Below are positions 40,443-63,175 of a DNA stretch of 64,000 nucleotides, piece after piece. The notes beneath the pieces are model-generated. The model was given only the letters and a program-made list of their open reading frames with translations, had not been told where the DNA came from and did not search any database. Within the stretch, counting starts at the first letter, position 1, and each line of letters begins with the position of its first letter. The position numbers and the translations under genes were made by a program. The DNA is from a virus. The stretch lies in IMG/VR virus record IMGVR_UViG_3300028610_002494, positions 1 to 64,000 of that record, one strand, 5' to 3'.

Positions 40443-40516
40443 TTTATTGTTTATATAAACCTTGTTTATAAAAATCTTACCTGAAATGCACAAATAAGGT
40501 TTATATAAACAATAAA
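40443..40516. repeat. Perfect 21-bp inverted repeat with 32-bp spacer containing TTTATATAAA
   Basis: tttattgtttatataaacctt (40443-40463) / aaggtttatataaacaataaa (40496-40516). Confidence 0.85.
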
Positions 40517-40799
40517 TTTAAATAAAACAAAAATAACTTAATCTTACTAAAAAAAAGTTAATTTAAATAAAAAAAAGTTAAAAAGAGGCTAAAAATAATG
40601 ACAGAAGAAATTCTAACAGTGAAAGAAGTTGTATTAAAATTGAGAAATTCTAAATATAGATATCTCAAAATTACTGAAAACCATTTTAATGAAATTTCAC
40701 GTGGTGATACTGCTGAAGTTATAAGAAGAGAAACTGATGACTATTTAGATTTAATATATAGATTCAAAAAACAAAAAACAACAAAAAAGGTAAAATAAA

Positions 40800-45020: not shown

Positions 45021-45542
45021 ATGGAAAAAATAAAAAAGATAAAATTTGAACTAATTCAAATGGAAAAGAATTATCAAACAAACAAGTCCATTTTCGTGAA
45101 AGACAGAACAATATTTATAGTTGGAAGATCAAATAAGTTAGGTAAAAAAATATTTTTCGTAAATGATTTTTATCCAAGGTTTTATGTAGAAAAAGGAGAA
45201 AATATAGATTTCATCATTGAAGAACATAAAGATAAAATAAAAGAAATTAAAACTAAAGAAGATGGTGAAGAATATAACTACAAAAATCTTGGAGGAAAAG
45301 AAGAACTTATTACAATTTACATTTATAAAACTTCAGATATTGAGATAAGAGATTTGTTTAGCAAAACATATCAAGCAAATATTAAATTTACTGAAGTTTT
45401 TAAAAGGGAAAAACTCATAAAAGATAATTTTTATGTTCCAGAATACGTTTTTGAAATGAAAACAAGAACTTTCAAAATATATGGAATAGAATACATAATG
45501 ATAAAAGAAAATGAGATTGATGGAGGAGAATTGATATTTTAA
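45021..45542 (+). CDS. Stand-alone N-terminal domain of family B DNA polymerase
   Basis: IFIVGR...DFYPRFYV...TSDIEIRDLF..TYQANIKFTEVF....I parallels PolB NTD (F.PYFY, P.DV..LR, YEADIPF..RYLID); 60024 lacks this domain. Confidence 0.75.
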   Translation: MEKIKKIKFELIQMEKNYQTNKSIFVKDRTIFIVGRSNKLGKKIFFVNDFYPRFYVEKGENIDFIIEEHKDKIKEIKTKEDGEEYNYKNLGGKEELITIYIYKTSDIEIRDLFSKTYQANIKFTEVFKREKLIKDNFYVPEYVFEMKTRTFKIYGIEYIMIKENEIDGGELIF

Positions 45543-45907
45543 AAATATACATCTCAGGTGCTGTAGAAGACTCAGAAATAATAAATGAATTAGCAAGATA
45601 TTTTGAAAAATGTAAATGTAAAATAACTCGAAAATGGTGGCACTTTACTACTGAAGATATAATGAGATATCCATTATATATAGAAGAAGATATTAAAGCA
45701 ATCAGAAAATGTGACTTATTTATAATGTATAATACCAATAAAAAAACAAGTGGTAAATTTATAGAACTTGGCATGGCTATTATATTGAATAAACCTATTT
45801 TAATTTATGGAAAAGACATAACAAGTATGTTTAAATCAAGAACACAATATTGTGGAGAATTTAATATTCAAAAAGAGGAGAAAAGATGGAAACTAAAAAA
45901 GAATTAA
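45536..45907 (+). CDS. Nucleoside 2-deoxyribosyltransferase/DNPH1-like N-glycosidase
   Basis: Frame extends upstream to (M)LKIYISG with an ATT start after GGAGG; DIKAIRKCD...SGKFIELGMA....KPI. Confidence 0.75.
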   Translation: MLKIYISGAVEDSEIINELARYFEKCKCKITRKWWHFTTEDIMRYPLYIEEDIKAIRKCDLFIMYNTNKKTSGKFIELGMAIILNKPILIYGKDITSMFKSRTQYCGEFNIQKEEKRWKLKKN

Positions 45908-46372
45908 GTGTTAAAGATATAGTTAAAAAATTCATAGATGATGAAAAAACTGCTTTCTTTCAACTCATTTATGATAGTATTACACGTGCATCTTCAACAA
46001 AAAGACCAGCAAGAGCAACTATAAGATTGCCAAAATATATTTGTGATACAGACACAAGGGATTTAAGAAAATGGGAAATTATTTGTGTTGCTATTCCAAA
46101 AGAGAAAGTAATGAAACTTTTAGAGGAATAAAATTATGAGATGGAAAATACAAATCATTAATTTAGGAAGTAAAAAGAAAAGAAAGATTAAAGACCTAAA
46201 AGACTATATATATGAAATCGCAGCAAAAATACAGATTTTTGTTGTTGAATTAGCAGAAGAAGATGAAACAATACCACTAACAAAACAAGAAAAATTAAAA
46301 AGAACTGGTGATTTCCTTTTAAAATTACAAAAAGAAATATTAGAATTTAGGAGAAATAAATATTGTCGTTAA
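45886..46372 (+). CDS. Two hypothetical genes (45886-46131, 46136-46372)
   Basis: Coupled ORFs. Confidence 0.5.
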
Positions 46373-47022
46373 TGGATTTTATTGGAAATAAAAAACCATT
46401 GGAAGAATTTATCAAATCTAATAAAGAAGATATTAAATTCAAGAAAATTAAATTTGAAGATATAATCTTTAGTGCTTTCGTTCATTTAAAATGTATGAAT
46501 TGTGGAATGTATAAAAGAAATTATCACTGTTTAGCAACTCCAAGATGGAAAAAATCTAAAGAAAACTTATCAAAATATAATAATTATTACTTAGTTTACA
46601 TACAATTTGATAATAAACCAAGAATAAAGGATTATTTCAAGAAAAGAGAAGTGTTTAGAGCACAAGGAAGTAAAGGAATGAATGATTGGTTAATTTATAG
46701 GAATGCTTGTGGTGCAAATCAAGCAATCATAGTTAGTAAATTAAGAAAATTCTTGATAAATGTTAAAACACACTATTCTAAAGAAAAATTAAAACTTTTT
46801 GGTGCAGGTGGTGGATGTCGTGGTTGTAGAGTTTGTGGGTTGGTTAAACCACAAATGATTAAAGAACCAAGAGAACCATGTAAAAAACCAAACAAGACTT
46901 TTGGAGCACCTGAAAGTATCGGAATAGACGTATATGCAACTTTAAAGAGAAATAAAATAGAATATGATGTCATACCAAAAAATAAATTAATAACAGTAGG
47001 GTTGATATGTCAAAAACAATAA
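46363..47022 (+). CDS. DUF2284-like Cys-rich metal-binding protein
   Basis: CMNCGMY..NYHC, GGGCRGCRVC, PC..P, PESIGIDV. Confidence 0.75.
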   Translation: MSLMDFIGNKKPLEEFIKSNKEDIKFKKIKFEDIIFSAFVHLKCMNCGMYKRNYHCLATPRWKKSKENLSKYNNYYLVYIQFDNKPRIKDYFKKREVFRAQGSKGMNDWLIYRNACGANQAIIVSKLRKFLINVKTHYSKEKLKLFGAGGGCRGCRVCGLVKPQMIKEPREPCKKPNKTFGAPESIGIDVYATLKRNKIEYDVIPKNKLITVGLICQKQ

Positions 47023-47219
47023 ATTGTAATCTAAATTGTCCAGCTTGTCATACAAACATAACTAAGATGAAAGAACATCATTTAAATGAAGATTTAGCTG
47101 TATTTAGATGTTTTTATTGTGGATATACTCAAACTATTTCAAATAATGGAGAATTTGAACCACAAGAAGAATTGAATATATATTATAATGAATATATAAA
47201 AAAAGAAATTATGAAGTGA
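47007..47219 (+). CDS. Zinc-ribbon protein
   Basis: CPAC...CFYC. Confidence 0.55.
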   Translation: MSKTINCNLNCPACHTNITKMKEHHLNEDLAVFRCFYCGYTQTISNNGEFEPQEELNIYYNEYIKKEIMK

Positions 47220-47451
47220 AAAAAGAAAATGGCATGGAAATTAAGAACTTTTAAATGTAAAATTAAAAATAGAGACTATATCTCTGAGATGTTTAAGATA
47301 AATAAAAGAACTTATAATTACACAACAACCTTAGATGGTAAAGTTATTGCTCATGAAGAAAATCTCGAAATGGAGACAGCAGTTATACTTGAAGATCACA
47401 TTAAAGAAATAATTAAAAAAGAAAAAAGAATTTATCAAATGGAAAATTAAA

Positions 47452-48066
47452 ATGAGTCTTGAAAAATTTATAGGTATAAAAAGAGTAATAGATAACACAA
47501 TACCATCAGTTTTTATACATATTTTAGGTGGTCATAGTACTGGAAAGTCTGGAATAGTTGGAAGAATAAAACAAAAATATGGTGCTAAAATTATGGCACT
47601 TGGTAAGTATTCAAGAAGTAGAACAACAAAAGGACTGCTAACTGGTGGAATGGATGGAATACAGATGACCAACAAAGAACGATTTAAATACATTAAAAGA
47701 CATTTTCTTTCAAATAAACAAGTGTTATTGTGTGAAGGAATGATGGTTATTTATTATGATTCTTTTTTAAGCAAATACTATGAACTACAGAAAATAAAAC
47801 ACAGAACTGTTTATGTAATATTACTACAAACTGATATTGAAACAATGCGAAAAAGAATATCTAAAAGAAGTAAAGGAAAAGAACATAGTGAAAAAAGAGA
47901 AAGAAATTTAAGATCAAAAGCAAGTTGTTCTGAATCAACTTATAATAGACTTGAAGAAAATAGTACATTTATTAAAACTAAATTCGATACATCAGATTCT
48001 AAGATTTTTGATAATATAGTTATATATATATCTGAAATTATTGACAAAACACTAAAAAAGGAATAA
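47452..48066 (+). CDS. P-loop kinase resembling 5-hmdU DNA kinase
   Basis: GGHSTGKS, LGKY, GGMDGI (family GGxDxI), LLCEG, RI.KRS lid. Confidence 0.7.
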   Translation: MSLEKFIGIKRVIDNTIPSVFIHILGGHSTGKSGIVGRIKQKYGAKIMALGKYSRSRTTKGLLTGGMDGIQMTNKERFKYIKRHFLSNKQVLLCEGMMVIYYDSFLSKYYELQKIKHRTVYVILLQTDIETMRKRISKRSKGKEHSEKRERNLRSKASCSESTYNRLEENSTFIKTKFDTSDSKIFDNIVIYISEIIDKTLKKE

Positions 48067-48068
48067 AT

Positions 48069-48641
48069 ATGGATTTTTTGATAAGAAAAATTAAAAATGA
48101 AAATGATAAAACACAAATTAAAATAATTTGTGAAAGTGTGGACAATAAAACAGTGAAATCTTTTCCTAATATTTGGGAAAGATTTAATAACTGGGAAAAG
48201 AATCCACCTTATGTTGTTGAAATAGATGGAAAGATAATTGCTTTTATGGGATTCACGATTAATAGAAATAATTATATTAATTTTTATGATTTTGCAGTTT
48301 TACCTGAATACCAAAGAAAAGGTATTGGTTCAGCTTTATGGGATAAGGTTATTAAAATTGCAACAGAAAATAGTAAAACAAGAATAAAATGTTCTGCTCA
48401 CATAGATTATGGTGGATATTTCTTTTACACTAAGAAAGTTAATTGGAAACCAATTGCAAGAAAAGGGAAAGAATATAAATTTGATGCTTTAATTGAAGGA
48501 ATTGATAATATTAATGATTTTACAAAAAGTATAAAGAAACAAACTCCACCAGATAAAAAAGAGATTGAAAGATATCAGAGATTAGATGAGTATTTTTATA
48601 ACTTAACTAAAAAAATATGGGAGTACTTTAAAAAATGTTAG
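48069..48641 (+). CDS. GNAT acetyltransferase
   Basis: FAVLPEYQRKGIGSAL, FFY; ends KKIWEYFKKC. Confidence 0.88.
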   Translation: MDFLIRKIKNENDKTQIKIICESVDNKTVKSFPNIWERFNNWEKNPPYVVEIDGKIIAFMGFTINRNNYINFYDFAVLPEYQRKGIGSALWDKVIKIATENSKTRIKCSAHIDYGGYFFYTKKVNWKPIARKGKEYKFDALIEGIDNINDFTKSIKKQTPPDKKEIERYQRLDEYFYNLTKKIWEYFKKC

Positions 48642-49240
48642 AAACAATTGATGAAGAAGATAAAATAATTAGGAAATTAACTTTTAAAGAAAAATTAGAA
48701 ATTGGAAAATGTGGAGAAAAAATTACAGATGAGAGAATAGTAGATATAATCCATTTCTTTACAGCTTATAATTCACCAAGAAGATGGTATATAGAAAAAA
48801 GTGTATATCAAAAACTATCTCCATATGAAAGATATAAAAAATACCAAGGCAACGGAATTGATGGATTACTTCATTATGATAGCTTATTAGTTCAAGTAAA
48901 AACAAGACAACTTGCATATCTCTTAGAAGAAGACATATATTTTGAATTAGGAAGAAGTATAAAAGGAATAAATAAATATAGTGGATGGTATTGGAAAAAT
49001 ATTGATTTATTATTATATTATTTTTATAGCTTAACAAAAAAGAAGATAATGTGTGGATATGTTATACTTCTGGATGAATTTAAGAAAACATATAACACTC
49101 CTGTAAAAATTAATAAGAAGTTTGAAATAAAATGTGATTGGAACTTTAATCCAACAAAAATATATTTTTGTCCTAAATTTAAAGATTTTCCAAATAATTC
49201 ATTTTATGATATAACACCAATAGTAAAGGAGCTGGAATAA
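48635..49240 (+). CDS. PD-(D/E)XK nuclease-fold protein
   Basis: GKCGE...QGNGIDG....VQVKTR...IYFE. Confidence 0.6.
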   Translation: MLETIDEEDKIIRKLTFKEKLEIGKCGEKITDERIVDIIHFFTAYNSPRRWYIEKSVYQKLSPYERYKKYQGNGIDGLLHYDSLLVQVKTRQLAYLLEEDIYFELGRSIKGINKYSGWYWKNIDLLLYYFYSLTKKKIMCGYVILLDEFKKTYNTPVKINKKFEIKCDWNFNPTKIYFCPKFKDFPNNSFYDITPIVKELE

Positions 49241-49241
49241 A

Positions 49242-49658
49242 ATAAAACTAATTCCTGATGTAACAGATAAAACATTAGAAACAAAGAAATTTAATCCAAA
49301 ATTAATTTATGAATCTATATTAAGAGAAACTGATATTTCTGAAGAAGATGCTAAAAGAATTATGGAAGAAGTTGTAAGAAAATTAGTTTTTATGGGTAAA
49401 AAAATAAAGTTCCTATCTGCTCGAATGATAAGAGAAACGACAAATGCAACATTTCCAGAATATGGATTTGAAGAAGAAAGAAAAAAATATACAGTAATTG
49501 GAATTCCATTCTATGATTTAAAAAATTGGGTTGAAGATAAAACCTTAATTCAAACAGAAATTGATAAAAAAATAGTAGAACATATTAGAACTGAATATTT
49601 AAATGTAGAAAACCTAATAGAAACAATAAGAAATGGAGAAAATAATGAGAGATTATAA
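49242..49658 (+). CDS. Stand-alone ATP-cone protein resembling the N-terminus of archaeal class III RNR
   Basis: Frame extended to ATA 49242: FNPKLIYESILRETDISEEDAKRIMEEVVRKL..IKFLSARMIRE...YT.IGIPFYD. Confidence 0.72.
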   Translation: MKLIPDVTDKTLETKKFNPKLIYESILRETDISEEDAKRIMEEVVRKLVFMGKKIKFLSARMIRETTNATFPEYGFEEERKKYTVIGIPFYDLKNWVEDKTLIQTEIDKKIVEHIRTEYLNVENLIETIRNGENNERL

Positions 49659-50763
49659 TATAACAGACTACAGAACTGAAAGATGGAATGGTTTTAAGGA
49701 TTATTATATTAAAGAAATGTACTGTGGTGATGATCCAAATTATCCTGCTTTAAATTATATTTGTGATAAATTAAAACTAACTGAAGAACAGAGATATTGG
49801 ATTGCATTCTTATATGGAACTAATTATTGTGTTCCAACAACATATTACATTTTTAAGGAATTTCCTGATTATGAAAGAATAGATATTGACGAACTACAAC
49901 ATTGGTGGGATAAAAATAAAGAAAAAACACATTTCCAAACAGACAGAGCAAAAGTAAAGAACTTTAATTATTTTGTAAAATGTGTTGAAAGCTATCAAGA
50001 TTTAGTAGGAAAAAACCAAGTAGAAACTTTTGATATATTTACTGAAATAGATGATAATCAAGAAAAATATAAAATGGTTTATGATTTTACTAATGAAATA
50101 TTTTATTTTGGAAGATTTAGTTTATTTAATTATCTTGAAACAATTAATAAACTCACTAATTTAGAAATGGAACCAGATGGTTTAGATCTTAAATATGCAG
50201 AGAGTGCACGTAATGGACTATGTTATGCTTGTAATAAAGAAGAGTTTATCACATTACATCACAAAAAATCAAAAGAAAAGATAAATTATAGGTATTTACA
50301 AGAAAAACTCGAAACAATTGTATATGAATTAAAAGAAGAGAACCCTGAGATTGATGTAAACTACTGGAATGTTGAAACTGTTTTATGTGCATATAAAAAA
50401 CTATTCTGGAACACAAGATATCTTGGTTATTATATTGATAGACAAATGGAAGATATAATTAAATTGCAGAATAATGTAGATATAATAGATTGGAAAATTC
50501 TATGGGATTTTAGAGCTGAATTTCATCATCCACAATTTCTTGGTGAATTTAATGACTGGAATGGGATAAGAGAAGAGAACAAGTATTATGTAACAAAACA
50601 TGGAATACTTGATATTAAAGAATTTCCTAAATATAAAACCTGTTTAAGAAAAGTTGATTTACAATCTACTAAAAAACCAAAATTAATAAACAACTTAGAA
50701 CATTATAAAAGAAGAATAATAAGCAAAAAACCTAAACCAAAAAAAATATGGGAATATTTTTAA
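49633..50763 (+). CDS. aGPT-Pplase2-like amino acid:DNA transferase (thymidine hypermodification)
   Basis: EQRYWIAFLYG, FQTDR, FGRFS.FNYLE, S.RNGL, ETVLCAYK, RY.GYYIDR; likely start 49645; ends KKIWEYF. Confidence 0.8.
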   Translation: MEKIMRDYNITDYRTERWNGFKDYYIKEMYCGDDPNYPALNYICDKLKLTEEQRYWIAFLYGTNYCVPTTYYIFKEFPDYERIDIDELQHWWDKNKEKTHFQTDRAKVKNFNYFVKCVESYQDLVGKNQVETFDIFTEIDDNQEKYKMVYDFTNEIFYFGRFSLFNYLETINKLTNLEMEPDGLDLKYAESARNGLCYACNKEEFITLHHKKSKEKINYRYLQEKLETIVYELKEENPEIDVNYWNVETVLCAYKKLFWNTRYLGYYIDRQMEDIIKLQNNVDIIDWKILWDFRAEFHHPQFLGEFNDWNGIREENKYYVTKHGILDIKEFPKYKTCLRKVDLQSTKKPKLINNLEHYKRRIISKKPKPKKIWEYF

Positions 50764-50779
50764 AAAGAGGTGAAATATT

Positions 50780-51016
50780 ATAACAAATCATAAAGAAATA
50801 AGATACAAAATCTGTTTTAATTGTAAGGTGTTTATGCCAATTTTCACTTGTGATGCCATTAATCTACAAGAACTAACAAATTTCGAAAGAATACATAATG
50901 AACATATGGTTCAAACTATAAACTACAACGAAATACCTACAAATTATATATTTATTAAAGGCAAAAATGCAAGAGAAAGAACTTTAACACAAATTCAAAA
51001 AATGTTAGAAGTATGA
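50780..51016 (+). CDS. Small metal-binding protein (ATA start)
   Basis: CFNC...H..H; the track ORF at 50828 lacks the CxxC. Confidence 0.55.
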   Translation: MTNHKEIRYKICFNCKVFMPIFTCDAINLQELTNFERIHNEHMVQTINYNEIPTNYIFIKGKNARERTLTQIQKMLEV

Positions 51017-51174
51017 AAAAATGTAAGGGATGTGGATATCCTCAAAATCCACCAAATAGCAATAAAATTTGGTTATCTGAGGATGGTCTATGTTCAATAT
51101 GTTATTCAAAACAAATAAAACTTAAAAAAAATAATAAAAAACCTAAAAAAATATGGGAATATTATGATAATTAA
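51013..51174 (+). CDS. 53-aa zinc finger with KKIWEYY tail (not in ORF track)
   Basis: MKKCKGC...CSIC...KKPKKIWEYYDN. Confidence 0.6.
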   Translation: MKKCKGCGYPQNPPNSNKIWLSEDGLCSICYSKQIKLKKNNKKPKKIWEYYDN

Positions 51175-51655
51175 AATAAAGAAAATGGGAAGAAATGTAA
51201 AATTACCAACAAAACAAAGAGAAGGAGATGCTGGATATGATGCTTATATTTATGGTTTCCAGAAATATACTCAAAATAAAATTAATAAAAATAAAAATCC
51301 AGTTAATTTGAATAGATCAGAATATATTTTAGAACCATTAGAAAGGGTTGATTGTAGATTAGGATTTGCCACAGAAATTCCTGAAGGATATTATGCTCAA
51401 ATTGTACCAAGAAGTGGTTTAGCAATTTGGAATGGTTTAACTGTATTAAATACACCTGCTACAATTGATTCTGGTTTCAGAAATGAATGGATGGTGATAA
51501 TTGTTAATATTTCTGATAAAAAAGTGAAGTTAATAGTTGGAGACAGAATTTGTCAAATAATCATAAGAAAATTGGTGGAATTTGAATTTAAAGAAGTTAA
51601 AAAATTAAATAAATCTGAAAGAAATTTAAATGGATTAGGGAGCACAGGAAAATGA
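51164..51655 (+). CDS. dut: Trimeric dUTPase
   Basis: AGYD, PRSGLA, TIDSGFR, GDRICQ, R...GLGSTG. Confidence 0.93.
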   Translation: MIIKIKKMGRNVKLPTKQREGDAGYDAYIYGFQKYTQNKINKNKNPVNLNRSEYILEPLERVDCRLGFATEIPEGYYAQIVPRSGLAIWNGLTVLNTPATIDSGFRNEWMVIIVNISDKKVKLIVGDRICQIIIRKLVEFEFKEVKKLNKSERNLNGLGSTGK

Positions 51656-52854
51656 AAATATTAGTAATAGCAGGATATCTTGAAGCAAATATCAAGAATG
51701 AAACACACAAAACTCAAAGTATTAAAGGTGGAGCATCTAAAAGTATTACAAACATAGTTAATAGCTTAAGAGATATAAAAGGTATCCAAATAAAAGTTTT
51801 AACACAAAAATTTAGAAACAAACTCTTAAAATCACTTGATCTTGATGCTTATATATTAATTCCAAGAATAATAAAAAATATTTCGAAATTTAAACCTAAC
51901 ATTATTATAACACAAGACAGAATTGCTTTTCCAACAATTCTCATTTCCAAAATAATGAAAATTCCTGTTATTTATATAATCAGATCTCCCACAGAGTTTT
52001 GTCCAAAATATGTAGATGTTGTTAACTATGGAAAAGCATGTTCAGGAATAAATAACAGGAGACAATGTTTTAAATGTATTAATAAATGGAAAACCTTGCG
52101 GATTTTAATTGATAATAGACCAAAAGGTTCAGAATATTCCATTAAAGCTTCTTTATTAAATGTTTTTTTTAAAATACGATATTTTATATGTTTATTCAAT
52201 TTGTATTTAACTAAAAAAGCTAATATGATTCTGGTTGCTTCTACATTAATGAAAGAATTTTTTTCCAATAAGATAAACCAAGATAAAATTAAAATAATTA
52301 ATATAACTCCAATCCACAAATATATAAATAATGTAAATAGAAAAAAGAAACAATTGATATTTATCAGAACCCATTATAATGCTGCACATAAAGGTTTAAA
52401 TTTCATTTTAAAATTATCAAAAATTATACCTGAAAAATATCGTATTTTAATAGTTGGCAGTTCTGAGGACAAACAACAAGAAAATAATCCAAAAATATTA
52501 AATGTTGGATATATTTCTTCTAAAATATTACTTAACAAAATGTTTGCAGAATCCAAGATCACTTTAGTTCCATCTTTCTTTACTGAAGCTTTTGGAAGGA
52601 TTATTCCTGAAAGTTTGTCAAATAAAACTCCAGTTATCTCTTCTCCACAATGTGGTGCAAACCAATTTTTTAAGGAAAAAGATTTTTTAAGGGTTGTTCC
52701 TTTAAAATTAAACTTATGGATAAAAACAATTGAAGATATTATCCAAAATCCTCCAATTATTACTGATAATGATATTTCTCAAATTTATGAGCAATTCTCA
52801 TTAGAAAAGAGTAAAAAAGATTTAATGAATATAATAAAAAATATTAAAAGGTGA
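51652..52854 (+). CDS. GT4-like glycosyltransferase with Cys-rich insert
   Basis: GGA N-terminal loop, KGL, PSFFTEAFGRIIPES...PVI. Confidence 0.85.
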   Translation: MKILVIAGYLEANIKNETHKTQSIKGGASKSITNIVNSLRDIKGIQIKVLTQKFRNKLLKSLDLDAYILIPRIIKNISKFKPNIIITQDRIAFPTILISKIMKIPVIYIIRSPTEFCPKYVDVVNYGKACSGINNRRQCFKCINKWKTLRILIDNRPKGSEYSIKASLLNVFFKIRYFICLFNLYLTKKANMILVASTLMKEFFSNKINQDKIKIINITPIHKYINNVNRKKKQLIFIRTHYNAAHKGLNFILKLSKIIPEKYRILIVGSSEDKQQENNPKILNVGYISSKILLNKMFAESKITLVPSFFTEAFGRIIPESLSNKTPVISSPQCGANQFFKEKDFLRVVPLKLNLWIKTIEDIIQNPPIITDNDISQIYEQFSLEKSKKDLMNIIKNIKR

Positions 52855-53454
52855 TTAAAATAAAAGAATGGAAAGAATGGAATTCATTTATACAATGGAT
52901 ATGTATTATTGGTTTTTTTTTAATAATTATAATGGTATTTATTGAAGTTTTTTATTTTATTATAAATATTCCAGATGAACTTATTCTTGGGATTCGTGAA
53001 AATAGTATAGGGAAACATTATCTCAATAATCCAGAATTAGTAGCTGAGATGGAAGCTTTAGCATCATCATCTGAGTTTTTACATTATACAATAGTATTTT
53101 TATTATATACATTGATATGTATAGTATTATTTTTTTCATATAATGAGGTTAGAGAAAATGAAAAAATATTTAAAAAAAGGAAAAAACATAGAAAAAAATA
53201 AATTGAAACACATTTTTAAATCTATTTTATTCTATACTAAACTTGTGTTTTATGTTTCAATAGGAATTTTAAGTTTAGGAATGATATTTGTATTGTTTAT
53301 GGGTTCGGATTTAGAAGAAGAAATATTTGAAGATGAATATGAATTAATGAGGAGAAGAGAACAATTAGAAGATGATTTAATATCAGAAAAGACAAAAAAA
53401 TACAATAAATTAACTTTAATAAAAAAAGAGGAAAATAATGAAAGAGAAATATAA
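52851..53454 (+). CDS. Two membrane proteins (52851-53201, 53143-53454)
   Basis: TM helices. Confidence 0.45.
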
Positions 53455-54181
53455 AGATTGGAAAGAAGCATTTCAAATGAAAAAAAAGTATTCAAAAAAC
53501 TTTCCATTTTGTTTCTATGATTTAGCTGCAAAATATTTACCTGAAGATGAGAAAGCTATAGTTATTGATGTTGGTTGTGGAGAATGTAGATTTGAGGATT
53601 ATCTTGATCTATGGAACAAATATAAAAATTTATTTGTTTTAGATGGAAATCTTGAAACTGTTGATAAAATAAAAGAAAAAACAAGATTGATACATGAATT
53701 TGATTATACAATTGAATATATAGCACCAAATAGAATGTTATTTGAAAATGAATCAGTGGATTATATATTTTGTGGACACTTAATAGAACATCTTGATTTC
53801 AAGGAATTATATAAATTATTTAAAGAATTTGATCGAGTTTTAAAAAATGATGGAATTCTTGTTGTAAGCACTCCTATGTTATGGAATGGTTTTTATGGGA
53901 CACTTAGTCATGTAAAACCTTATCATCCAGCACTTTTCAAGGATTATTTTTATACTGATGATGAAAATATAAACCCATCATATAAACCTATTTCCAGAAA
54001 ATATAAACTTGAGGAACTTGTTTATAGATACCATACATTTGTAGATATACATAATACAATGGGATCATCTATAAAAGCATTTGATTTTCTAATTCAATTC
54101 TCGAAGTATGTTTTGAGAGCTTTAGGAATAAAAAAATATACTCAAACTGGATATACAATAATTTTAAGGAAACAAAAATGA
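53438..54181 (+). CDS. Class I SAM-dependent methyltransferase
   Basis: IDVGCG, HLIEHL, RVLK.DG.LVVSTP. Confidence 0.85.
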   Translation: MKEKYKDWKEAFQMKKKYSKNFPFCFYDLAAKYLPEDEKAIVIDVGCGECRFEDYLDLWNKYKNLFVLDGNLETVDKIKEKTRLIHEFDYTIEYIAPNRMLFENESVDYIFCGHLIEHLDFKELYKLFKEFDRVLKNDGILVVSTPMLWNGFYGTLSHVKPYHPALFKDYFYTDDENINPSYKPISRKYKLEELVYRYHTFVDIHNTMGSSIKAFDFLIQFSKYVLRALGIKKYTQTGYTIILRKQK

Positions 54182-54858
54182 ATAACATTAAAGATACAAG
54201 CTGGATTTCATATAAAACACTTCAATCACATTTTATGCAAATTTATTTAACAATAAAACTAAAAGCTAAAGATGTTCTTGAGATTGGAGTATTAAGGAAA
54301 ATTGTCACTTCTATTTTAAATCAATATTGTAATTTAACCACTCTTGATTTTAAAGAAGAGTTTAATCCAGACTTGATTATTGATATTACTGATTCTAAAC
54401 AGCTTGATACCATTAAAAATAATGCTTATGATTTAATATTACTCTGTGAAGTGTTAGAACATATTTCTTATGAAAAAATAGATAAAATACTCAAAATATT
54501 AAAAAAGAAAACAAGAAAATACCTAATAATTTCAGTTCCAAATCAAACTACATATATAAATCTAACTTTCTTTAATCACAGTAATAATAGAATACTTAAA
54601 AAAATAAAAGATTATTTTAATTTATTTTTTATTAAAATAGGAAACTTAATTTCAAAATTAGACTATAATATAAGGAAAAAACATAGAAAATATAAATCCG
54701 AAGGGACTTTCTTTCCTCATTGTTGGGAATTAGGAGTAGATAAATATAGTATAAACACATTTAAAAAACTATTAGAAAAGTATTTTACAATTATAAAAGA
54801 AGAAAGACTTAGAGATCATCCTTTTCACCATTTTTTTATATTAAAAAAGAGGTTATAA
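54178..54858 (+). CDS. Class I SAM-dependent methyltransferase
   Basis: VLEIG, YDLILLCEVLEHI, IISVP. Confidence 0.8.
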   Translation: MNNIKDTSWISYKTLQSHFMQIYLTIKLKAKDVLEIGVLRKIVTSILNQYCNLTTLDFKEEFNPDLIIDITDSKQLDTIKNNAYDLILLCEVLEHISYEKIDKILKILKKKTRKYLIISVPNQTTYINLTFFNHSNNRILKKIKDYFNLFFIKIGNLISKLDYNIRKKHRKYKSEGTFFPHCWELGVDKYSINTFKKLLEKYFTIIKEERLRDHPFHHFFILKKRL

Positions 54859-54859
54859 A

Positions 54860-55594
54860 ATGGGATTAACAAATGTTATCATTGATTTTCAAGAAGAAAT
54901 CATTCAAAAAATAGGTTTTCAATGGCAAAACATAAGAATATGTGAACTTGGTGCTATGTATATGAGAACAGTTGATATTCCTGCAAAAGAATATTATATT
55001 AAAGAAAAAAAAGTATTAGAACATATATCTATTGATTGGAATGGTATGTATGATTCACTTCCAATTGATTTATGTTTTCCTGTTCCTGAAGAATTATTAA
55101 ATAGATTTCATTTAATAACTGATTTTGGAACAATAGAACATGTAGATAATCAATATCAAGTTTTTAAAAATACACATGATATATGTACTAAAAATGGAAT
55201 TATGATCCACATCTTACCAACCTTAAATTATTGGAAATTTCATTGTCGTTATTTTTATACAAAAGAATTCTTTTTAAAATTAGCAGAATTATGTAAATAT
55301 AAAACTCTTGATTTAAAAGAAGGAAATTGTTGTGATCCACCAATATTTAAGAGAGATTTGATTTATGTAGCATTTTTAAAACTAAATAATAATAAATTTA
55401 CTTCAGAAAAAGAATTTAATAAGCTTAATATATTTGATATAAAAGAACCAGATAATACTAACAAACTTAGAACAGAAAATATTGTTTACATTTTATGGAA
55501 ATTAACAGAACACCAATTTTTTTTGAAGGGTTTTCGTAAAATACTTAAAAATATCTATAAGATATATATAAATGTTAAAAAAGGTATAAAATGA
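54860..55594 (+). CDS. Class I SAM-dependent methyltransferase-like protein
   Basis: ICELG, DFGTIEHV, G.MIHILP. Confidence 0.7.
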   Translation: MGLTNVIIDFQEEIIQKIGFQWQNIRICELGAMYMRTVDIPAKEYYIKEKKVLEHISIDWNGMYDSLPIDLCFPVPEELLNRFHLITDFGTIEHVDNQYQVFKNTHDICTKNGIMIHILPTLNYWKFHCRYFYTKEFFLKLAELCKYKTLDLKEGNCCDPPIFKRDLIYVAFLKLNNNKFTSEKEFNKLNIFDIKEPDNTNKLRTENIVYILWKLTEHQFFLKGFRKILKNIYKIYINVKKGIK

Positions 55595-56466
55595 AAACAA
55601 GAATATTCATACTCTGTGCAGGGAAAAATGTAAAATATTATGGAATTACAAGACAATTATTAAAGATAAATGGAGAAGAAATATTAGGAAGAATGATTAG
55701 ATTAATAAAAGAAGAATGTAATTATGAGATTTTTATAATCACCAATAATGATATTATAGAGAATTATATTAAAAGTATTAGAAATAATAAAATTATACTT
55801 TTTCATCCTGCTGCTGAACGATATCATATGGAAAGCTTATATTCAACTAAAGAAGAATGGGTTGAAAGAAATATATTCTTATTTGGTGATGTAGTGTTCT
55901 CTAAACATGCTATAAAAAAAATATTAAATTCTGATAATAAATTAAGTTTCTTCTTTAGAATAAAACCACATTTATATTTAAACAAACGTTATCCTGAAGG
56001 TTTTGGTATGTTAATTCCATTGAATGAAACTAATAGGATGTCAGATATCATTTTAAGATCCTATAAAAGAGCATCTATACATGGTGGAGTATTTATATTT
56101 AATAGTATTTGGAAAGAACTTAATTTAAGATTAGGAGAAGAACATTTAGAATTTGAATCTTATAAAACACGTGATTTAATCAGTAAACTATGCTTAAATG
56201 AATTTATAAGAGGTATTTTTTATGGAATAATACGATCCATTGAAGGAAAAATAATACGATTTATTTTTTATAAAGCTAAAATATCTGATAAATGGAAAAA
56301 TAAACTTGTTAAATTATTTTTAGGGAAAAAAATTCCAGATTATAATAAAAACTTATTATCATCTAAATACATTGTAGAAATACATGATATAACTGATGAT
56401 ATAGATCATCCAAGAGAGTATAAAGATTATATTAAACTAATAGTGAAAAAAGGTTTATTACAATGA
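55591..56466 (+). CDS. Nucleotidyltransferase (NTP_transferase/LicC-like, GT-A fold)
   Basis: FILCAG, QLLKINGE.IL.R, FGDV, DDID. Confidence 0.72.
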   Translation: MKTRIFILCAGKNVKYYGITRQLLKINGEEILGRMIRLIKEECNYEIFIITNNDIIENYIKSIRNNKIILFHPAAERYHMESLYSTKEEWVERNIFLFGDVVFSKHAIKKILNSDNKLSFFFRIKPHLYLNKRYPEGFGMLIPLNETNRMSDIILRSYKRASIHGGVFIFNSIWKELNLRLGEEHLEFESYKTRDLISKLCLNEFIRGIFYGIIRSIEGKIIRFIFYKAKISDKWKNKLVKLFLGKKIPDYNKNLLSSKYIVEIHDITDDIDHPREYKDYIKLIVKKGLLQ

Positions 56467-57377
56467 TGGATGCTACTGATAAATTTACTACAATTGGTTT
56501 TGAAATAACGAACCACTGTAATAAAAACTGTAAATTTTGCACTAAGATGACAGGATATAAATATAAAATCAGATATACAAAATTAGATGATTATGAATAT
56601 GTTGTGTCTTGTATAAACAAGAAAGACAGAGAAAAATTTAGAAAAGTAGTGATCACTGGTGGAGAACCACTTTTACATCCACATTTTATAGAATTAATGA
56701 ATTTAGTAAGAAAAGATTTTCCGAAAGCTGAGATTAAAGTACAATCAAATGGAAGATTAATTAAAAGATTGCCACAAAAGAAATTAAGAATTTTACCTAA
56801 TATAAAAAAAGTAATATTTTCAGTATCCCATTATCCAAGCTGGAACGATGAAATAAAGAAAATATATGACGGAAATATTAAAACACCGTTAATTTATAGA
56901 AGAGTAATCAGAAAACTAACCAAAAATAACAAATTTATAAAATTACTCAATTTAGATTATAGAATTCCATTTATAAAAAAAGTAAGACGATTTATTAGCA
57001 ATCCTTTTAAAAGAGGAAATGTTTACTTTAAGAATTTCACAGGATTTCGTGATCCTTATGTAGATCCAAATCTAACGAAAGAAAATGCAAAAATAGTTAG
57101 AAAAACATGTCATTATTTTATTTGGATAATAGACAGAAAGCTTTATAGCTGTTGTGTAGATTCTGTTTATGAAAGATATTATAACACCAAATCTGTTGGT
57201 ATTAAATTTGATAAAAACTGGAAAAAAAATTATTTCAAATTACCAACATGGAGAGCTTGTGCTCATTGTCCACAAGGATATAATAGGTACATAGTAATTA
57301 GTTCAGGATTTGAAAAATATAAATTAATTAGTTTAAGAAAAAGATTAGAATTTGTGAGGATTAAAACCCATGTTTAA
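56463..57377 (+). CDS. Radical SAM enzyme
   Basis: CNKNCKFC, TGGEPLLHP, SNG; C-terminal C...CC...CxxC. Confidence 0.88.
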   Translation: MMDATDKFTTIGFEITNHCNKNCKFCTKMTGYKYKIRYTKLDDYEYVVSCINKKDREKFRKVVITGGEPLLHPHFIELMNLVRKDFPKAEIKVQSNGRLIKRLPQKKLRILPNIKKVIFSVSHYPSWNDEIKKIYDGNIKTPLIYRRVIRKLTKNNKFIKLLNLDYRIPFIKKVRRFISNPFKRGNVYFKNFTGFRDPYVDPNLTKENAKIVRKTCHYFIWIIDRKLYSCCVDSVYERYYNTKSVGIKFDKNWKKNYFKLPTWRACAHCPQGYNRYIVISSGFEKYKLISLRKRLEFVRIKTHV

Positions 57378-57804
57378 AAAAATAAAATTATCACAATTCA
57401 TTGGCAGACAATTATCAAGATTAAAAATGGGTCAAGTATATTATGTAATGGGAATGTATTCTATAACAGCTGTAGGAATATTAAAAGTAGCATTTCCACA
57501 AATAAGTATTTGGACATTTATACTTTTTATTCCATTTATGTTTGTTGGAGCTTTTTTAATTGGTTTTATTGCAGATAGAAGTAATGTTACAACGATGGAT
57601 TATCAGAAGACAATAGAGATGACAAACAGATATTTAACCATTTTAGACTTTAAAAATAATGATTTTAGAATACTCCAAATGGAAACTATGTTTGAATGGA
57701 TAAAATCCTTAAAAGAAAATAAACCTTTAGATAAAAATATATTAAATGAGAAATATAAAGAATTTTTAAATAAATGGAGTCCTAAAAAAGAAAATGAAAA
57801 ATAA
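57370..57804 (+). CDS. Two-TM membrane protein
   Basis: Two hydrophobic helices. Confidence 0.5.
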   Translation: MFKKIKLSQFIGRQLSRLKMGQVYYVMGMYSITAVGILKVAFPQISIWTFILFIPFMFVGAFLIGFIADRSNVTTMDYQKTIEMTNRYLTILDFKNNDFRILQMETMFEWIKSLKENKPLDKNILNEKYKEFLNKWSPKKENEK

Positions 57805-57968
57805 AATAATAACACCTAAAAACTTAACAAATCAACAAAAATGTGATATTGATTGGATTATAAATGTATTAACCAAATCAACAAAAAACTCAATAAGTTC
57901 TGTAAATATTTATTTTAATGGGTTTGATATTAAATTTAATTATAAAATAAAAATTAAGCTGAGGAAAA

Positions 57969-58424
57969 ATGGAAAAAAATAAAGATTTAATTGATACTTT
58001 AGATCCACTACATTATTACACTAAAAAGGATTTATGTGGAAATTGTAAATATATAAAATCATTTTTATGTGATAAGAGATATGCTGAAGGAATTAACATA
58101 ACCTATTTAGAACAATATCAAATTAAAATATATATATATAAATTTATATCAAATAATTTAAGAAAGATAATTGATTCATTACACGACAAAGAACTATATC
58201 ATCATAGACAAGGTGGATATTTTGCTTTAAAATCAACCAATTTCCATTGTGGTGAATCTTGTGATTGTGATTGTTCTACAGAAAGATGCTGGGAATTTGA
58301 AAGAGTACCAAGTAGAAGACAGCCACATTGCATCAAGTTTTTTGGTTTGGATTTACCTGAAAAATATAAAGAGAACAATATTACATTTATTTTAGGCAAT
58401 TTAGAGTTTGAGAAAATAATATAA
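57969..58424 (+). CDS. Cys-rich protein, possible divergent DUF2284 paralog
   Basis: CGNC.Y...FLC, CGESCDCDC...C, FGLDL. Confidence 0.45.
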   Translation: MEKNKDLIDTLDPLHYYTKKDLCGNCKYIKSFLCDKRYAEGINITYLEQYQIKIYIYKFISNNLRKIIDSLHDKELYHHRQGGYFALKSTNFHCGESCDCDCSTERCWEFERVPSRRQPHCIKFFGLDLPEKYKENNITFILGNLEFEKII

Positions 58425-58455
58425 ACAAGGTTTATATAAACAAGGTTTATATAAA
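58418..58455. repeat. 15-bp tandem repeat caaggtttatataaa, related to the 40443 element
   Basis: Copies at 58426-58440 and 58441-58455 plus a partial copy upstream. Confidence 0.8.
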
Positions 58456-58515
58456 ATAAAATAAAGTTAAATAGTAAAATAGTCTTTAAATAATTATAGA
58501 GGTTAAAAATTAAAT

Positions 58516-59805
58516 ATGAAATATAAAATGAAAGAATTAAGTATTGAAATAACATATAAATGTCCAATGAATTGTATTCATTGTAGCAGTAGAGCAGAAC
58601 TTGAAAATGAGACAATGATACCAACAGAAAAGATTTTAGAAATGATTGGAAGATGTAAAATATACTGTGGAACTGAATGTGTTTCTCTTTCAGGTGGAGA
58701 ACCATTTGAACATCCTGATTTCTGGAAAATATTAAAACACATTAAAGCTCAAGGTTTAAAAAGTATAGTTTATTCTTGTGGAATTGAGATGTCACCTGAT
58801 GGATATTATTGGTGTTTTAGTGATGAAAGAATAAAAAAACTAAAAACCTTATGTGATGTGTTAATAATAAGTTTACATGGAACTGGTGATAAACATAATA
58901 AAATATTAAATATTGGAGATACTGCTTTTTGGAATGTATTATATACAATAATGAAAGCAGTGCGTGAAAGTATTAAAGTTGAAATTCACTTTGTTCCTAT
59001 GTCTTTTAACTATAAAGACATTAAAATTATATATGGAGTCTGTATGGCACTTGGTGTTTCTAAAATGTCAATATTACGATATGTACCACAAGGAAGAGGA
59101 TTAGAAACAAGTAAAACTGAAGGAGAAATAAACCTAAATAAACCACAATTTATCGAACTACAATATGATATGAGATATATAAGAGATTTATCTAAAATCA
59201 CTGGTATGACTGAATTTAGAATTGGTATTCCAGCAGACTTTACATTTTTACTTGATTATCTTGAAGGGAATAATGATGCCAAAAAAACTAAAGCTTGTAC
59301 AGGTGGAAAAACTAAAATACTTGTAAAAGCTGATGGGTTTGTTCAAGTATGTCCTGCTTGGAAAGAACTTGATCACCTTTCAGCAGGAAATATTTATAAA
59401 GAAGATATTGTAGATATATGGAAAAAAGGAAATACTTATTGTAAATTTAGAGAATTTACCTATAAAGATTTAGGAGAACCATGTAAAAATTGTAAACTTG
59501 TTGAAAGTTGTTTAGGTGGTTGTGGAGCTCAAAGAATTTTGAATTCAACCTTTAAAGAAATAAATGGACTAAAAATTGCTCCTGATCCATTATGTTTTTA
59601 TGATGAAATAGAACTTACTAAAAAAGGGTTGATTGAATTAATAGATATATTAGAACTAAAGAAATGGTTAATCAATAAAAAAGAAGAATATGAAGAAATT
59701 GCTGTTAATTCAATGTCAGATTCACGAGCAGTTAATTATATGGCAAGAACAACTACTATTAAAGAAATCCTTAAATATATTGAAGAAATAAAAGAGATTA
59801 ATTAA
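58516..59805 (+). CDS. Radical SAM/SPASM domain protein
   Basis: CPMNCIHC, SGGEP, CTGG...G.VQVCP, CKNC....SCLGGC. Confidence 0.9.
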   Translation: MKYKMKELSIEITYKCPMNCIHCSSRAELENETMIPTEKILEMIGRCKIYCGTECVSLSGGEPFEHPDFWKILKHIKAQGLKSIVYSCGIEMSPDGYYWCFSDERIKKLKTLCDVLIISLHGTGDKHNKILNIGDTAFWNVLYTIMKAVRESIKVEIHFVPMSFNYKDIKIIYGVCMALGVSKMSILRYVPQGRGLETSKTEGEINLNKPQFIELQYDMRYIRDLSKITGMTEFRIGIPADFTFLLDYLEGNNDAKKTKACTGGKTKILVKADGFVQVCPAWKELDHLSAGNIYKEDIVDIWKKGNTYCKFREFTYKDLGEPCKNCKLVESCLGGCGAQRILNSTFKEINGLKIAPDPLCFYDEIELTKKGLIELIDILELKKWLINKKEEYEEIAVNSMSDSRAVNYMARTTTIKEILKYIEEIKEIN

Positions 59806-60023
59806 ATGTATGCAATCCCAAGGAAGAAAAGGAAAAATAAATCAATAGAAATCTCTGAGAAATTATTTTCAGAAGCTATACATAATCAAGATTATGAAAA
59901 AGCAGCATCGGTTGTTTTTTGGTGTGTTCTTAAAGAATTTGCTCAAGAAGGAATTATAAGTGCATTAGAAAATGGAAATTCATTCTATGAAAGAAAAAAA
60001 TATAGAAATAGAGGTTTATAATA

Positions 60024-62381
60024 TTGAGAAGAAGATTCACATTTGATATAGAAATTAATTATGATGAAATAGACCCATTTGATTTAGTAATTAAAAAAGG
60101 ATCAAGTCCTATTCAAATGTTTGGTTGTTATGATTATTATAAAAATAAATTTTATTCCTTTTTTTATCATAAAAACGTGAAATTAATACCTGCAGAAGAA
60201 ATTAAAAATAAAATTGATAAAAAAATATATTTAATGCTTAAAAAACATTTTGGAAATCAAAAATTTGTTGTTAAAGAAGGATTTTTTAATTCTACTGAAA
60301 GTGGAAGAAAATGGAAATGTAGATATCTTTCTTTTAATAATGAAAAAATAATGATTAGAGCATTTATGAAATTTGTTAAAGATATCAGTCCAGACATTTG
60401 GTCTGGGTTCTTTATTGAAACATTTGATCTTGTTTATATTATGAACAGATGTAAAACACTAAAAGTTAGTTATAAATATTTAAGTCCACTTTATGAAGCT
60501 TATATAAGTCATGGAAGAGCTAAAATAAGAGGAAGTATAATATATGACACTCCTAAAACTTATGCTAAATATATGGGAACTCATCGTCATGCTAATTCAC
60601 TGAAAAAAATAGCTGAATCACATCTGAAAAGAGATGATGACCACAAAATAACTAAAACATCTGAAAGTATTATAAACGAAGATTGGTATGATAATGATTG
60701 GAAAAAATTCATAGAATATTGTTTAGTAGATGTAGAATTATGTGTTTTATTAGAAGAAGAACTTGAACTAATAAGCATGGCAGAAGGATTTGAAAAATTT
60801 ACTGGAACCAACCCTGAATTTGTATTTTTTCCTTCTCATCTAATTGAAAGTACATTTAATTTCATTAAACCTATTTATGAAGAACAAGTATTAAAAAATG
60901 AATATAAAATTGCATTTAACACTAAAAAGAGAAGAAAATTTGAGAAAGCAGCAGGTGCAAAAGTATTAGAAAGTAAAAAAGGATTTTATCGAAAAGGATT
61001 AATGATAATCCTTGATCTTGCAAAAGAATATCCAAAAATAATAGAAAGTATAAATATATCACCTGAAACTTTAGTTAAAATAATAGATCAAAATGAGAAA
61101 GACAAATACAATTATTGTAAAGAAAATGATGTATATTATGTTAAAGAACCAATAGGATTTGTTCCTTTTGCTTTTAAATTTCTTTATTTAATAAGAGATC
61201 GTATAGAAAAAGAAAGAGATAAATTTGAATTTGGTTCTGATAAATTTAATGATATGAACAAAAAAAGACAAACAGTAAAAGATTTGATAAATGCTGTCAC
61301 AGGTCAAGCTGATTATGCAGACTCAATTATTCTTAGTCCAATATGTGCTAATTCATGTAGATTAACTGGACAAAAAGAAATAGTAATATCTGTTAATTAC
61401 ACAAAAAAATTTGGTATTGAATTAAAATTAAAACTTAAGGTTATTTATGGTGATACTGATTCTATTTTTGTTTGGTTAGAAAATGTACAAGATGTTGAGA
61501 TTGCAAAGAAAATAGCTAAAGAAATATGTAAATGGATACAAGTTGGGTTTGATAAATATGCAAAAGAACTAAATTTAAAATCTCACCAATTTGAAATAGG
61601 TTTAGAAAAAATATTAGATATTTTTGTTAGTATAGGCAAAAAGAAAAAGTATTTTGGGCATATTTTATGGGCAGATGGTAATTATGTAAAAGAAGAAAGC
61701 AGTTTACTTGTAAAAGGATTTGAGACAAGAAGATCAGACAGTAGTGATTTTACAGATAAAATACAAAAAGAAATATTTGGATTAATAAACAAAACAAGAA
61801 TATTAGGATGGCATAAAGTAAGAAAAAAAATACTACATAAAATAAAAGTGGAATATCCAGATGGGTTTTCAGAAGATAATTTACTTACAATTGGAATACC
61901 TAAAAAAATAAATAAACGATTTAAAGATTACAAAGTGACAAATGCTCATCTAAGAGGATGTGAATATGCTAATAAATATGTTAATGCTAATTTTCATGCT
62001 GGTTCTAAACCTAAATTGATTTATATTAAAGAGGTTAAACAAAAAGGTGATATAACTTTTCCAAAAAAATATCCACCAACAGATGTATTATGTGTGCAAG
62101 AAGGTATGAAAATTCCAGAAGGAGTTTTTATTATTGACAAAAAAACAATGCTGGAAAAAACAGTTTATAAAAAATTAAGACAAACACTTGATGTTGTAGG
62201 AATACCAATATCACAAATACAAAGTGGATTGAAACAAACTAATATAAAAGATTATTTTAATAAATTTAGTAATGACAAAAAAATAACGAAAAAACATATT
62301 TTAACTATAAATAAAGAAAAGTTAGGTAAAATATTAATTAACTCTAAAAATATTCTTAAAACTATGAAAAAAGAGGTTTAA
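60024..62381 (+). CDS. polB: Family B DNA polymerase, exonuclease + polymerase domains only
   Basis: Starts at ExoI FDIE; FDL.Y, YCLVD, DLAKEYP, K..IN, YGDTDS, KKKY, KGFE..RSD; PIP box QTNIKDYF. Confidence 0.92.
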   Translation: MRRRFTFDIEINYDEIDPFDLVIKKGSSPIQMFGCYDYYKNKFYSFFYHKNVKLIPAEEIKNKIDKKIYLMLKKHFGNQKFVVKEGFFNSTESGRKWKCRYLSFNNEKIMIRAFMKFVKDISPDIWSGFFIETFDLVYIMNRCKTLKVSYKYLSPLYEAYISHGRAKIRGSIIYDTPKTYAKYMGTHRHANSLKKIAESHLKRDDDHKITKTSESIINEDWYDNDWKKFIEYCLVDVELCVLLEEELELISMAEGFEKFTGTNPEFVFFPSHLIESTFNFIKPIYEEQVLKNEYKIAFNTKKRRKFEKAAGAKVLESKKGFYRKGLMIILDLAKEYPKIIESINISPETLVKIIDQNEKDKYNYCKENDVYYVKEPIGFVPFAFKFLYLIRDRIEKERDKFEFGSDKFNDMNKKRQTVKDLINAVTGQADYADSIILSPICANSCRLTGQKEIVISVNYTKKFGIELKLKLKVIYGDTDSIFVWLENVQDVEIAKKIAKEICKWIQVGFDKYAKELNLKSHQFEIGLEKILDIFVSIGKKKKYFGHILWADGNYVKEESSLLVKGFETRRSDSSDFTDKIQKEIFGLINKTRILGWHKVRKKILHKIKVEYPDGFSEDNLLTIGIPKKINKRFKDYKVTNAHLRGCEYANKYVNANFHAGSKPKLIYIKEVKQKGDITFPKKYPPTDVLCVQEGMKIPEGVFIIDKKTMLEKTVYKKLRQTLDVVGIPISQIQSGLKQTNIKDYFNKFSNDKKITKKHILTINKEKLGKILINSKNILKTMKKEV

Positions 62382-62383: not shown

Positions 62384-63175
62384 ATGAAAAAAACAAAAAT
62401 TAGCAGTAGTAAAATTGATGGATATGATTGGTGTAATAGAAAATATAGAATTAGAGAAATAGAAAAAATTCCATCTGGAGTTCCACCACATCCTTCATTA
62501 ATACTTGGAAAAGTAAGTCATAAAGAAATACATAATTTTTGGGAAAGATATAACCTTGATCTGGATAATTATGTTTTTCATATACAAAATTACTATACTA
62601 AAACCATTAAAAGAATTAGAGGATTAAGTGAAGAAAATTATATAAAATTCCAGTTGTATTTCTCAAATTTTATTAGTTTCCAGAAAAGAAGAATTGATAC
62701 TTACATAAAAAAATATGATGATGAATATTATATTATTGATAAGCTGTTTTTTCCCATAATCTCCGAAAAATATGGAAAAGTAAATATAACAAGTGATATT
62801 ACTTTTGGATTCATTATAGATTCTTTATTTTGGAATCCTACTGGCAATATCCTAATAGACTGGAAAACAGATAAGGATTGTACTGAGGAAAAATTCAAGA
62901 GTCATATACCTCAACTTAATAGATATTCAGAATGTTTACCACATATTAACCATAGTTGTAAAAAAATAGGGATATACTTCCTAAAAGACTCATTATTTTT
63001 TAACAGGTTAAACACAATAGGATATTCACTTGAAAAAGAAGTATTGACTTTTATAAGAAAAATACAGATCTCTAAATTTCCAAAGGTGTCAAAAAGAGAT
63101 AAATGGAAATGTCATAATGCAGATCTCAGTTATACTTGTGAATATTATCCAGAAATATGTACAGGAGTTGAATAA
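62384..63175 (+). CDS. Cas4-like PD-(D/E)XK exonuclease
   Basis: WC.RKY, IID, IDWKT, QL..Y and C-terminal Cys cluster. Confidence 0.8.
   Translation: MKKTKISSSKIDGYDWCNRKYRIREIEKIPSGVPPHPSLILGKVSHKEIHNFWERYNLDLDNYVFHIQNYYTKTIKRIRGLSEENYIKFQLYFSNFISFQKRRIDTYIKKYDDEYYIIDKLFFPIISEKYGKVNITSDITFGFIIDSLFWNPTGNILIDWKTDKDCTEEKFKSHIPQLNRYSECLPHINHSCKKIGIYFLKDSLFFNRLNTIGYSLEKEVLTFIRKIQISKFPKVSKRDKWKCHNADLSYTCEYYPEICTGVE

Follow-up and report, generated by a model that had tools for sequence, protein, structure and literature searches.

Why would a virus encode its DNA polymerase as two genes lying 14.5 kb apart, with a block of DNA-modification genes between them? The question is raised by virus record IMGVR_UViG_3300028610_002494, a genome of 111,837 bp closed by a 144-bp direct terminal repeat, whose first 64 kb are the stretch of DNA analyzed here (the window). 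An earlier, sequence-only reading of the window had described a family-B DNA polymerase (PolB) divided into an N-terminal-domain (NTD) gene and a catalytic gene that bracket a modification island. Both open reading frames (ORFs) are confirmed in place on the + strand: 45021-45542 encodes a stand-alone PolB NTD subunit of 173 amino acids (aa), and 60024-62381 encodes a 785-aa exonuclease-polymerase (Exo-Pol) subunit that starts with TTG. The layout probably represents a non-covalent two-subunit PolB that arose by fission at the boundary between the NTD and the exonuclease (Exo) domain, with the modification cassettes accreting in the gap later.

The identity of the small protein emerges from family profiles and a structural model. 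Used singly as a query, the 173-aa protein had no match in Pfam, PHROG, or PDB, the profile of its close family alone gave no PDB match, and an AF2 model from the single sequence had a pLDDT of 33. A database search recovered 22 stand-alone homologues of 161-218 aa with about 60-86% identity, plus two partial ones. The window’s protein ends in a conserved tail, GGELIF; 19 of the 20 aligned homologues likewise end ...GG.L.F, and the twentieth continues beyond it. P52, R53, R110, Y117, N120, I121, F123, and V126 are invariant among these 20. An exhaustive search of 1.84 billion representative proteins with a profile built from 20 close homologues matched 32 proteins, and all ten of the long ones (393-1455 aa) are family-B polymerases. 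The match lies within the first ~150 residues, just upstream of the exonuclease domains, in nine of these ten and at residues 90-204 in P0172. A profile built from P0001 and distant stand-alone relatives aligns with residues 21-126 of archaeal PolB in PDB (E ~2e-7), pairing DFyPyFyV with FEPYFYA, DV..lR with QDVPAIR, and yeaDilF..rfkid with YEYDIPFAKRYLID. This same profile matches haloarchaeal and methanogen PolBs at their N-termini (~1e-25) and has zero matches in the truncated clade.

The AF2 model computed from a 35-sequence alignment reaches a pLDDT of 90.5. The PDB hits listed by Foldseek for this model are all PolB, as are nearly all of the BFVD hits listed. In VIA alignments, model residues 6-171 superpose on residues 2-145 of E. 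coli Pol II (Z 12.9, root-mean-square deviation 2.8, 137 residues), residues 7-173 on 1-159 of P. calidifontis PolB (Z 10.9), and residues 10-139 on 1-132 of Tgo/KOD (Z ~9). The profiles and the superposed model thus confirm that 45021-45542 encodes a genuine family-B polymerase NTD and nothing else of the polymerase, which was the homology that the sequence-only reading had singled out for checking.

The catalytic gene complements this domain. Exo-Pol begins MRRRFTFDIE, with six residues preceding ExoI (FDIE, 60042-60053 on the + strand, residues 7-10). It has its own Shine-Dalgarno-like sequence, GAGGT, at 60011-60015 on the + strand, 8 nt 5′ of the TTG start. The frame is shut 5′ of this start by a TAG at 60009-60011, which rules out an N-terminal extension. 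The gene therefore starts at ExoI with a putative ribosome-binding site of its own, as had been read from the letters. In Pfam, Exo-Pol matches PF00136 (5e-27) and PF03104 (3e-10), and its phrog_262 match covers positions 117-847 only of the 856-position profile. In the PDB alignment, residue 105 corresponds to residue 185 of KOD/Tgo-type PolB, which places ExoI at the extreme N-terminus, and the alignment runs on to 646/683. KOD residues 185-683 are covered, including the second NTD segment (Tgo 327-368). Exo-Pol has no NTD, and all catalytic motifs (ExoI-III, A, B, and C) are present. Motif C, YGDTDS (61446-61463 on the + strand, residues 475-480), and the KKxY element follow the canonical pattern. 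Motif A reads DLAKEYPK (versus DxxSLYPS) at residues ~331-338, and motif B reads K..NAVTG (versus KxxxNSxYG) at ~419-427; both deviations are invariant in 13 homologues. The variant positions line the nascent base-pair and deoxynucleoside triphosphate (dNTP) site. These 13 Exo-Pol homologues (54-81% identity, 765-823 aa) all start MRR..(F/L/I)DIE; close homologues taken as a whole span 748-823 aa and start in this way too. A relative on a 67-kb contig (L001) has a listed PolB ORF of 804 aa, whose upstream start is spurious; the conserved MRRTLTIDIE begins from an ATG at 17304.

The cut sits at the NTD/exonuclease domain boundary, ~10 residues before ExoI, because the NTD model aligns as far as Pol II residue 145 and P. 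calidifontis residue 159, ~10 residues short of ExoI, and Exo-Pol begins at ExoI. No Hint/intein domain was matched in Pfam, and there is no room for one at either end of the break. An intein or trans-splicing origin is therefore rejected, in line with the earlier remark that no intein ends are visible.

Both genes are conserved. All close relatives carry NTD and Exo-Pol as separate ORFs rather than one polypeptide, and ~20 independent relatives from metagenomes have retained the split. The complete genome holds one NTD gene and one PolB gene; a second polymerase elsewhere in it was considered and rejected on this basis. The window and L001 share 71% identity in the NTD and 59% in the catalytic gene. 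NTD pN values of 0.16-0.19 (0.18 overall), set against pS values of 0.48-0.82 with synonymous change saturated, give a dN/dS of at most ~0.23. By this comparison, selection on the NTD gene is purifying, and this gene has changed more slowly than its catalytic partner, as would be expected of a part kept in working order. Measured against P0041, the nearest fused PolB, the NTD is ~31% identical and the catalytic part ~30%. These equal distances fit the fission of one fused ancestral gene.

What lies between the two genes is less constant. L001 shares the upstream synteny of the window, but its NTD-PolB gap is 6.7 kb rather than 14.5 kb. The gap genes common to both are an NDT-like gene, DUF2284, a small protein, a homologue of the gene at 57969, and a radical SAM/SPASM gene. 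L001 lacks the ADDT/kinase/GNAT/dUTPase/glycosyltransferase/methyltransferase block and has instead a gene of the TET-associated-glycosyltransferase family and another radical SAM/SPASM gene. In L004, a relative from the LCGC14 marine-sediment metagenome, the gap resembles that of the window. The sequence-only reading had asked whether PolB might be fused where the island is absent; L001, in which the ADDT/kinase/GNAT/dUTPase block is missing, is split nonetheless. Because L001 is split around a different middle block with a shorter gap, the split is ancestral to the clade and the gap is a variable cassette site, or hotspot. Repeat, promoter, and terminator scans of 44.4-63.6 kb found nothing above background that would explain the insertions.

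Taken in order, an old gene fission at the NTD/exonuclease boundary would have split PolB, so that a 173-aa NTD and a 785-aa Exo-Pol would be translated separately. The two most likely reassemble non-covalently into a canonical PolB, in which the second NTD segment retained in the large subunit (corresponding to Tgo 327-368) would be the docking site of the NTD. Accessory cassettes, which here encode DNA-modification enzymes, would then have gathered in the gap and made it a hotspot; they lie on the strand that also carries the replication module. Some points weigh against this account. The physical assembly of NTD and Exo-Pol, although most likely, is something that we infer, as is the order of events, with fission first and insertions later, for which a single full relative and two partial relatives speak. 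The NTD pocket has also diverged from that of canonical archaeal PolBs, and its function could have shifted.

This pocket has been described in detail for archaeal PolBs, with Y7 as its lid, P36 and Y37 as its base, residues 90-97 and 111-116 as its walls, V93 as a key residue, and R119 and D123 in a hydrogen-bond network (PMC2241895). Profile alignment shows that the by-eye mapping of the sequence-only reading (PY to PR, PQDV to TSDI, and EYDIPF to QANIKF) was correct. At the base of the pocket in the window’s NTD, P36 is kept as P52, and Y37 is replaced by R53, which is invariant in the 20 homologues. In the walls, P90 is replaced by T104, D113 by N120, and P115 by K122, which is nearly invariant in the NTD family; V93 is kept as I107 (V in most of the family), I114 as I121, F116 as F123, and R97 as R110. 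In the hydrogen-bond network, R119 is replaced by an invariant V126, and D123 aligns with E130 at a variable position. Because the replacement residues are invariant across the family, the site seems remodeled rather than decaying, and it may have acquired a new role.

Such a role is one part of the alternative in which the NTD acts independently and Exo-Pol works largely without it, possibly as a binder of single-stranded nucleic acid, a regulator, or a reader of modified or unmodified bases that couples replication to modification. The NTD of T4/RB69 gp43, for example, binds RNA. We consider this alternative doubtful. The invariance of the remodeled pocket residues among the 20 homologues suggests a selected new site, the NTD gene heads its block after a 200-nt intergenic region and could thus differ in expression level, and the role of the PolB NTD has been described as incompletely understood (PMC7544198). 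However, the large subunit retains the complementary second NTD segment, and divergence from the nearest fused relative has run in parallel in the NTD and the catalytic part. Pfam and PHROG scans also revealed no other partner and no added domain in the 173-aa protein.

The proposal of the sequence-only reading itself was that the uracil read-ahead sensor has been detached and/or remodeled, so that the polymerase can copy, without stalling, the uracil-derived (hypermodified thymidine-type) bases that the island makes. The loss of Y37, P90, D113, P115, and R119 and the lack of conservation at D123 are in its favor, and every clade member with enough context has modification genes between the two halves. 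However, sister stand-alone NTDs (P0150, P0152, P0157, P0165, P0174, and P0158) keep PY, DVP, YE(A/S)DIPF, R119, and D123. The split and the pocket remodeling are therefore separate events. The canonical archaeal pocket binds uracil and not thymine (PMC2241895), and PCR with KOD XL, an enzyme built on an archaeal PolB, gives DNA with complete 5-hydroxymethyluracil substitution (PMC11550810). A base with a C5 substituent should thus not trigger read-ahead stalling, which takes place ~4 nt before a template uracil, even with an intact sensor. Plain U is not expected in the viral DNA because the island encodes a dUTPase, and a U-containing genome was rejected for the same reason. The NTD is also under strong purifying selection rather than discarded. 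Together, these observations leave the sensor proposal unsupported and unlikely.

In a more specific version, which we regard as very unlikely, the NTD is a free-standing template-base reader. Its remodeled pocket (R53, N120, V126, and the near-invariant K122) would recognize a virus-specific modified or not-yet-modified thymidine derivative, no longer uracil, and would tie the advance of the fork to the modification enzymes encoded alongside it, which are possibly clamp-tethered.

An artefact or decay, whether a misassembly or a pseudogenized polymerase with a relic N-terminal fragment, is effectively refuted: the layout is unusual and the NTD gene has no obvious Shine-Dalgarno sequence, but the two-gene layout and identical gene ends recur in independent JGI, ENA, Logan, and NCBI (LCGC14 marine-sediment metagenome) assemblies, which excludes the misassembly that the sequence-only reading had allowed for, both genes are under purifying selection with all catalytic motifs intact, and the genome is closed by its terminal repeats and holds no other polymerase B.

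The preferred reading, a two-subunit PolB produced by gene fission, has precedents. Single-chain archaeal PolBs (Pfu, Tgo, KOD, 9°N, P. calidifontis, haloarchaeal, and methanogen) share the fold and the set of motifs. Identity in the catalytic part is 25-30%, and ExoI-III, motifs A-C, the KKxY element, and a PIP-like box at the C-terminus are common to both. Unlike them, the viral enzyme consists of two polypeptides and has replaced pocket residues and variant motifs A and B. The split PolBs of Methanobacteriales and of group B magroviruses, the latter also archaeal viruses, are likewise intein-free and encoded by two genes (10.1101/101196; PMC4104785). Their cut falls inside the polymerase domain and their genes are adjacent or nearly so, whereas here the cut is at the NTD/Exo boundary and the genes are 14.5 kb apart. 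The split PolB of M. thermautotrophicus is active according to work cited in 10.1101/101196 and PMC4104785. In the chimallivirus PhiKZ, a viral PolB is formed from two distantly encoded proteins, DNAP-N and DNAP-C, which make a stable 1:1 complex (PMC13648687); by comparison, the small subunit here is the NTD alone. PhiKZ and M. thermautotrophicus thus show that PolB can work as separate intein-free chains. The split-intein PolB of Nanoarchaeum equitans also has non-adjacent gene halves (PMC4104785), but these are joined by protein trans-splicing, and no Hint/intein sequence is present here. The statement that known splits fall inside the polymerase domain holds for the published cases checked: those of Methanobacteriales, N. 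equitans, group B magroviruses, and PhiKZ all concern the catalytic domain. The PolB splits described in the literature searched involve the catalytic/palm domain or split inteins only (10.1101/101196; PMC4104785; PMC13648687). A split PolB is therefore of a known kind, and the clean release of the NTD as its own protein differs from those published cases.

Stand-alone NTDs are not confined to the close relatives. The exhaustive profile search also gave many more distant proteins of 124-183 aa. Several are on long contigs (P0154 on 90.7 kb, P0155 on 32 kb, and P0165 on 25 kb), and one cluster has ten members, each of 149 aa and on a separate contig. Many of these distant proteins share a natural-looking C-terminus, ..(I/V).G(F/W). 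In a tree of NTDs, 19 of the 25 stand-alone sequences fall in one group (SH-aLRT 86). A single clade of stand-alone NTDs is thus only moderately supported by the tree, which does not prove a single origin. No stand-alone NTD protein is present in BFVD, and IMG/VR scans with the NTD family, P0157, P0154, and A4 found no relatives. IMG/VR scans with P0165, P0150, and a PolB alignment (A6), together with a scan of genome contigs, found only fused PolBs or catalytic-domain splits. An example of the latter is a 555-aa PolB ORF on unrelated viral IMG/VR contigs (L021:2547-4214 and L022:9971-11638), which has an NTD, an exonuclease domain, and motifs A-B and meets a stop soon after motif B. It is a catalytic-domain split, a type already known.

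The surroundings of the polymerase genes are of archaeal character. The window has a G+C content of 25%, and the + strand carries nearly all sizeable ORFs between 43 and 64 kb. An archaeo-eukaryotic-type replication module spans 27004-42593, 5′ of the NTD gene, and includes a DEAD/ResIII helicase (27004), FEN1/XPG (30188), an N6/N4 DNA methylase fused to an Mrr-like nuclease domain (35263), an RFC small-subunit-like ATPase (38026), and an ERCC4-like protein (40800). The closest cellular relatives of the viral polymerase are archaeal. Because of these relatives and the replication genes, the virus is treated as a putative archaeal virus. Directly 3′ of PolB, a PD-(D/E)XK nuclease is encoded at 62384-63175 on the + strand (PF12705, 2e-5; phrog_1218), and its L001 orthologue is 55% identical and in the same position. 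Exo-Pol also carries a PIP-box-like sequence, QTNIKDYF (62235-62258 on the + strand), ~40 residues before the polymerase C-terminus, whose KQT...DF core is kept in the clade. PCNA (PF00705) was not found in the viral genome, and the PIP-like box therefore implies use of a host clamp.

The intervening block (45543-60023, 14.5 kb) holds ~28 genes, all on the + strand and largely concerned with DNA or nucleotide modification. Pfam and NCBIfam scans assign an NDT-like ORF (45662), DUF2284 (46363), a P-loop kinase-like protein (47452; generic P-loop families only, with scores below their cut-offs), and a GNAT protein (48069-48641). These are followed by a transferase of the ADDT/aGPT-Pplase family at 49633-50763 (PF18724, 6.9e-20, 72 bits against a cut-off of 26; PF18746, 8e-5) and a dUTPase at 51164 (an NCBIfam equivalog, 115.7 bits against a cut-off of 103). 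Farther along are a GT1 glycosyltransferase (51652), methyltransferase-like proteins (53438 and 54178), a nucleotidyltransferase-like protein (55591), a radical SAM protein (56463), and a radical SAM/SPASM protein (58516). The whole genome has no match to a ThyA-like dUMP hydroxymethylase (PF00303) or to TET/JBP (PF12851). The presumed 5-hydroxymethyluracil substrate thus has no detected source gene, despite the presence of the ADDT/aGPT-Pplase gene and the dUTPase. The two radical-SAM enzymes are candidates for new chemistry.

Several island proteins share short terminal motifs. The tail KKIWEY(F/Y), basic and then aromatic, ends three of them: the GNAT protein (48615-48632), the ADDT-family transferase (50743-50760), and a 53-aa zinc-finger-like protein encoded at 51013-51174 (tail at 51148-51165). 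The DNA repeat underlying the tail is AAAAAATATGGGAATAT. The tail could be a docking peptide, e.g., for a sliding clamp. A similar N-terminal motif, ..(F)IG.K, is found on the proteins encoded at 46363 (MSLMDFIGNKK), 47452 (MSLEKFIGIKR), and 57370 (..LSQFIG), and may be a second shared tag. The NDT-like ORF (45542-45907) is odd at its start. Its frame is already open within the stop region of the NTD gene, the start listed for it (45662) is internal, and the first ~40 codons lack ATG, GTG, and TTG, yet include a KIYISGA motif. The L001 orthologue has a GTG start 2 nt past the NTD stop. A near-cognate start, translational coupling, or a truncated gene are possible explanations.

The finding matters in several respects. 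Gene callers and marker-gene surveys will label the NTD protein hypothetical and the polymerase N-terminally truncated. A natural two-chain enzyme is a ready system in which to ask what the NTD contributes to uracil or base read-ahead, template-strand handling, and stability. For these putative archaeal viruses, the polymerase locus is a hotspot where DNA-modification cassettes come and go.

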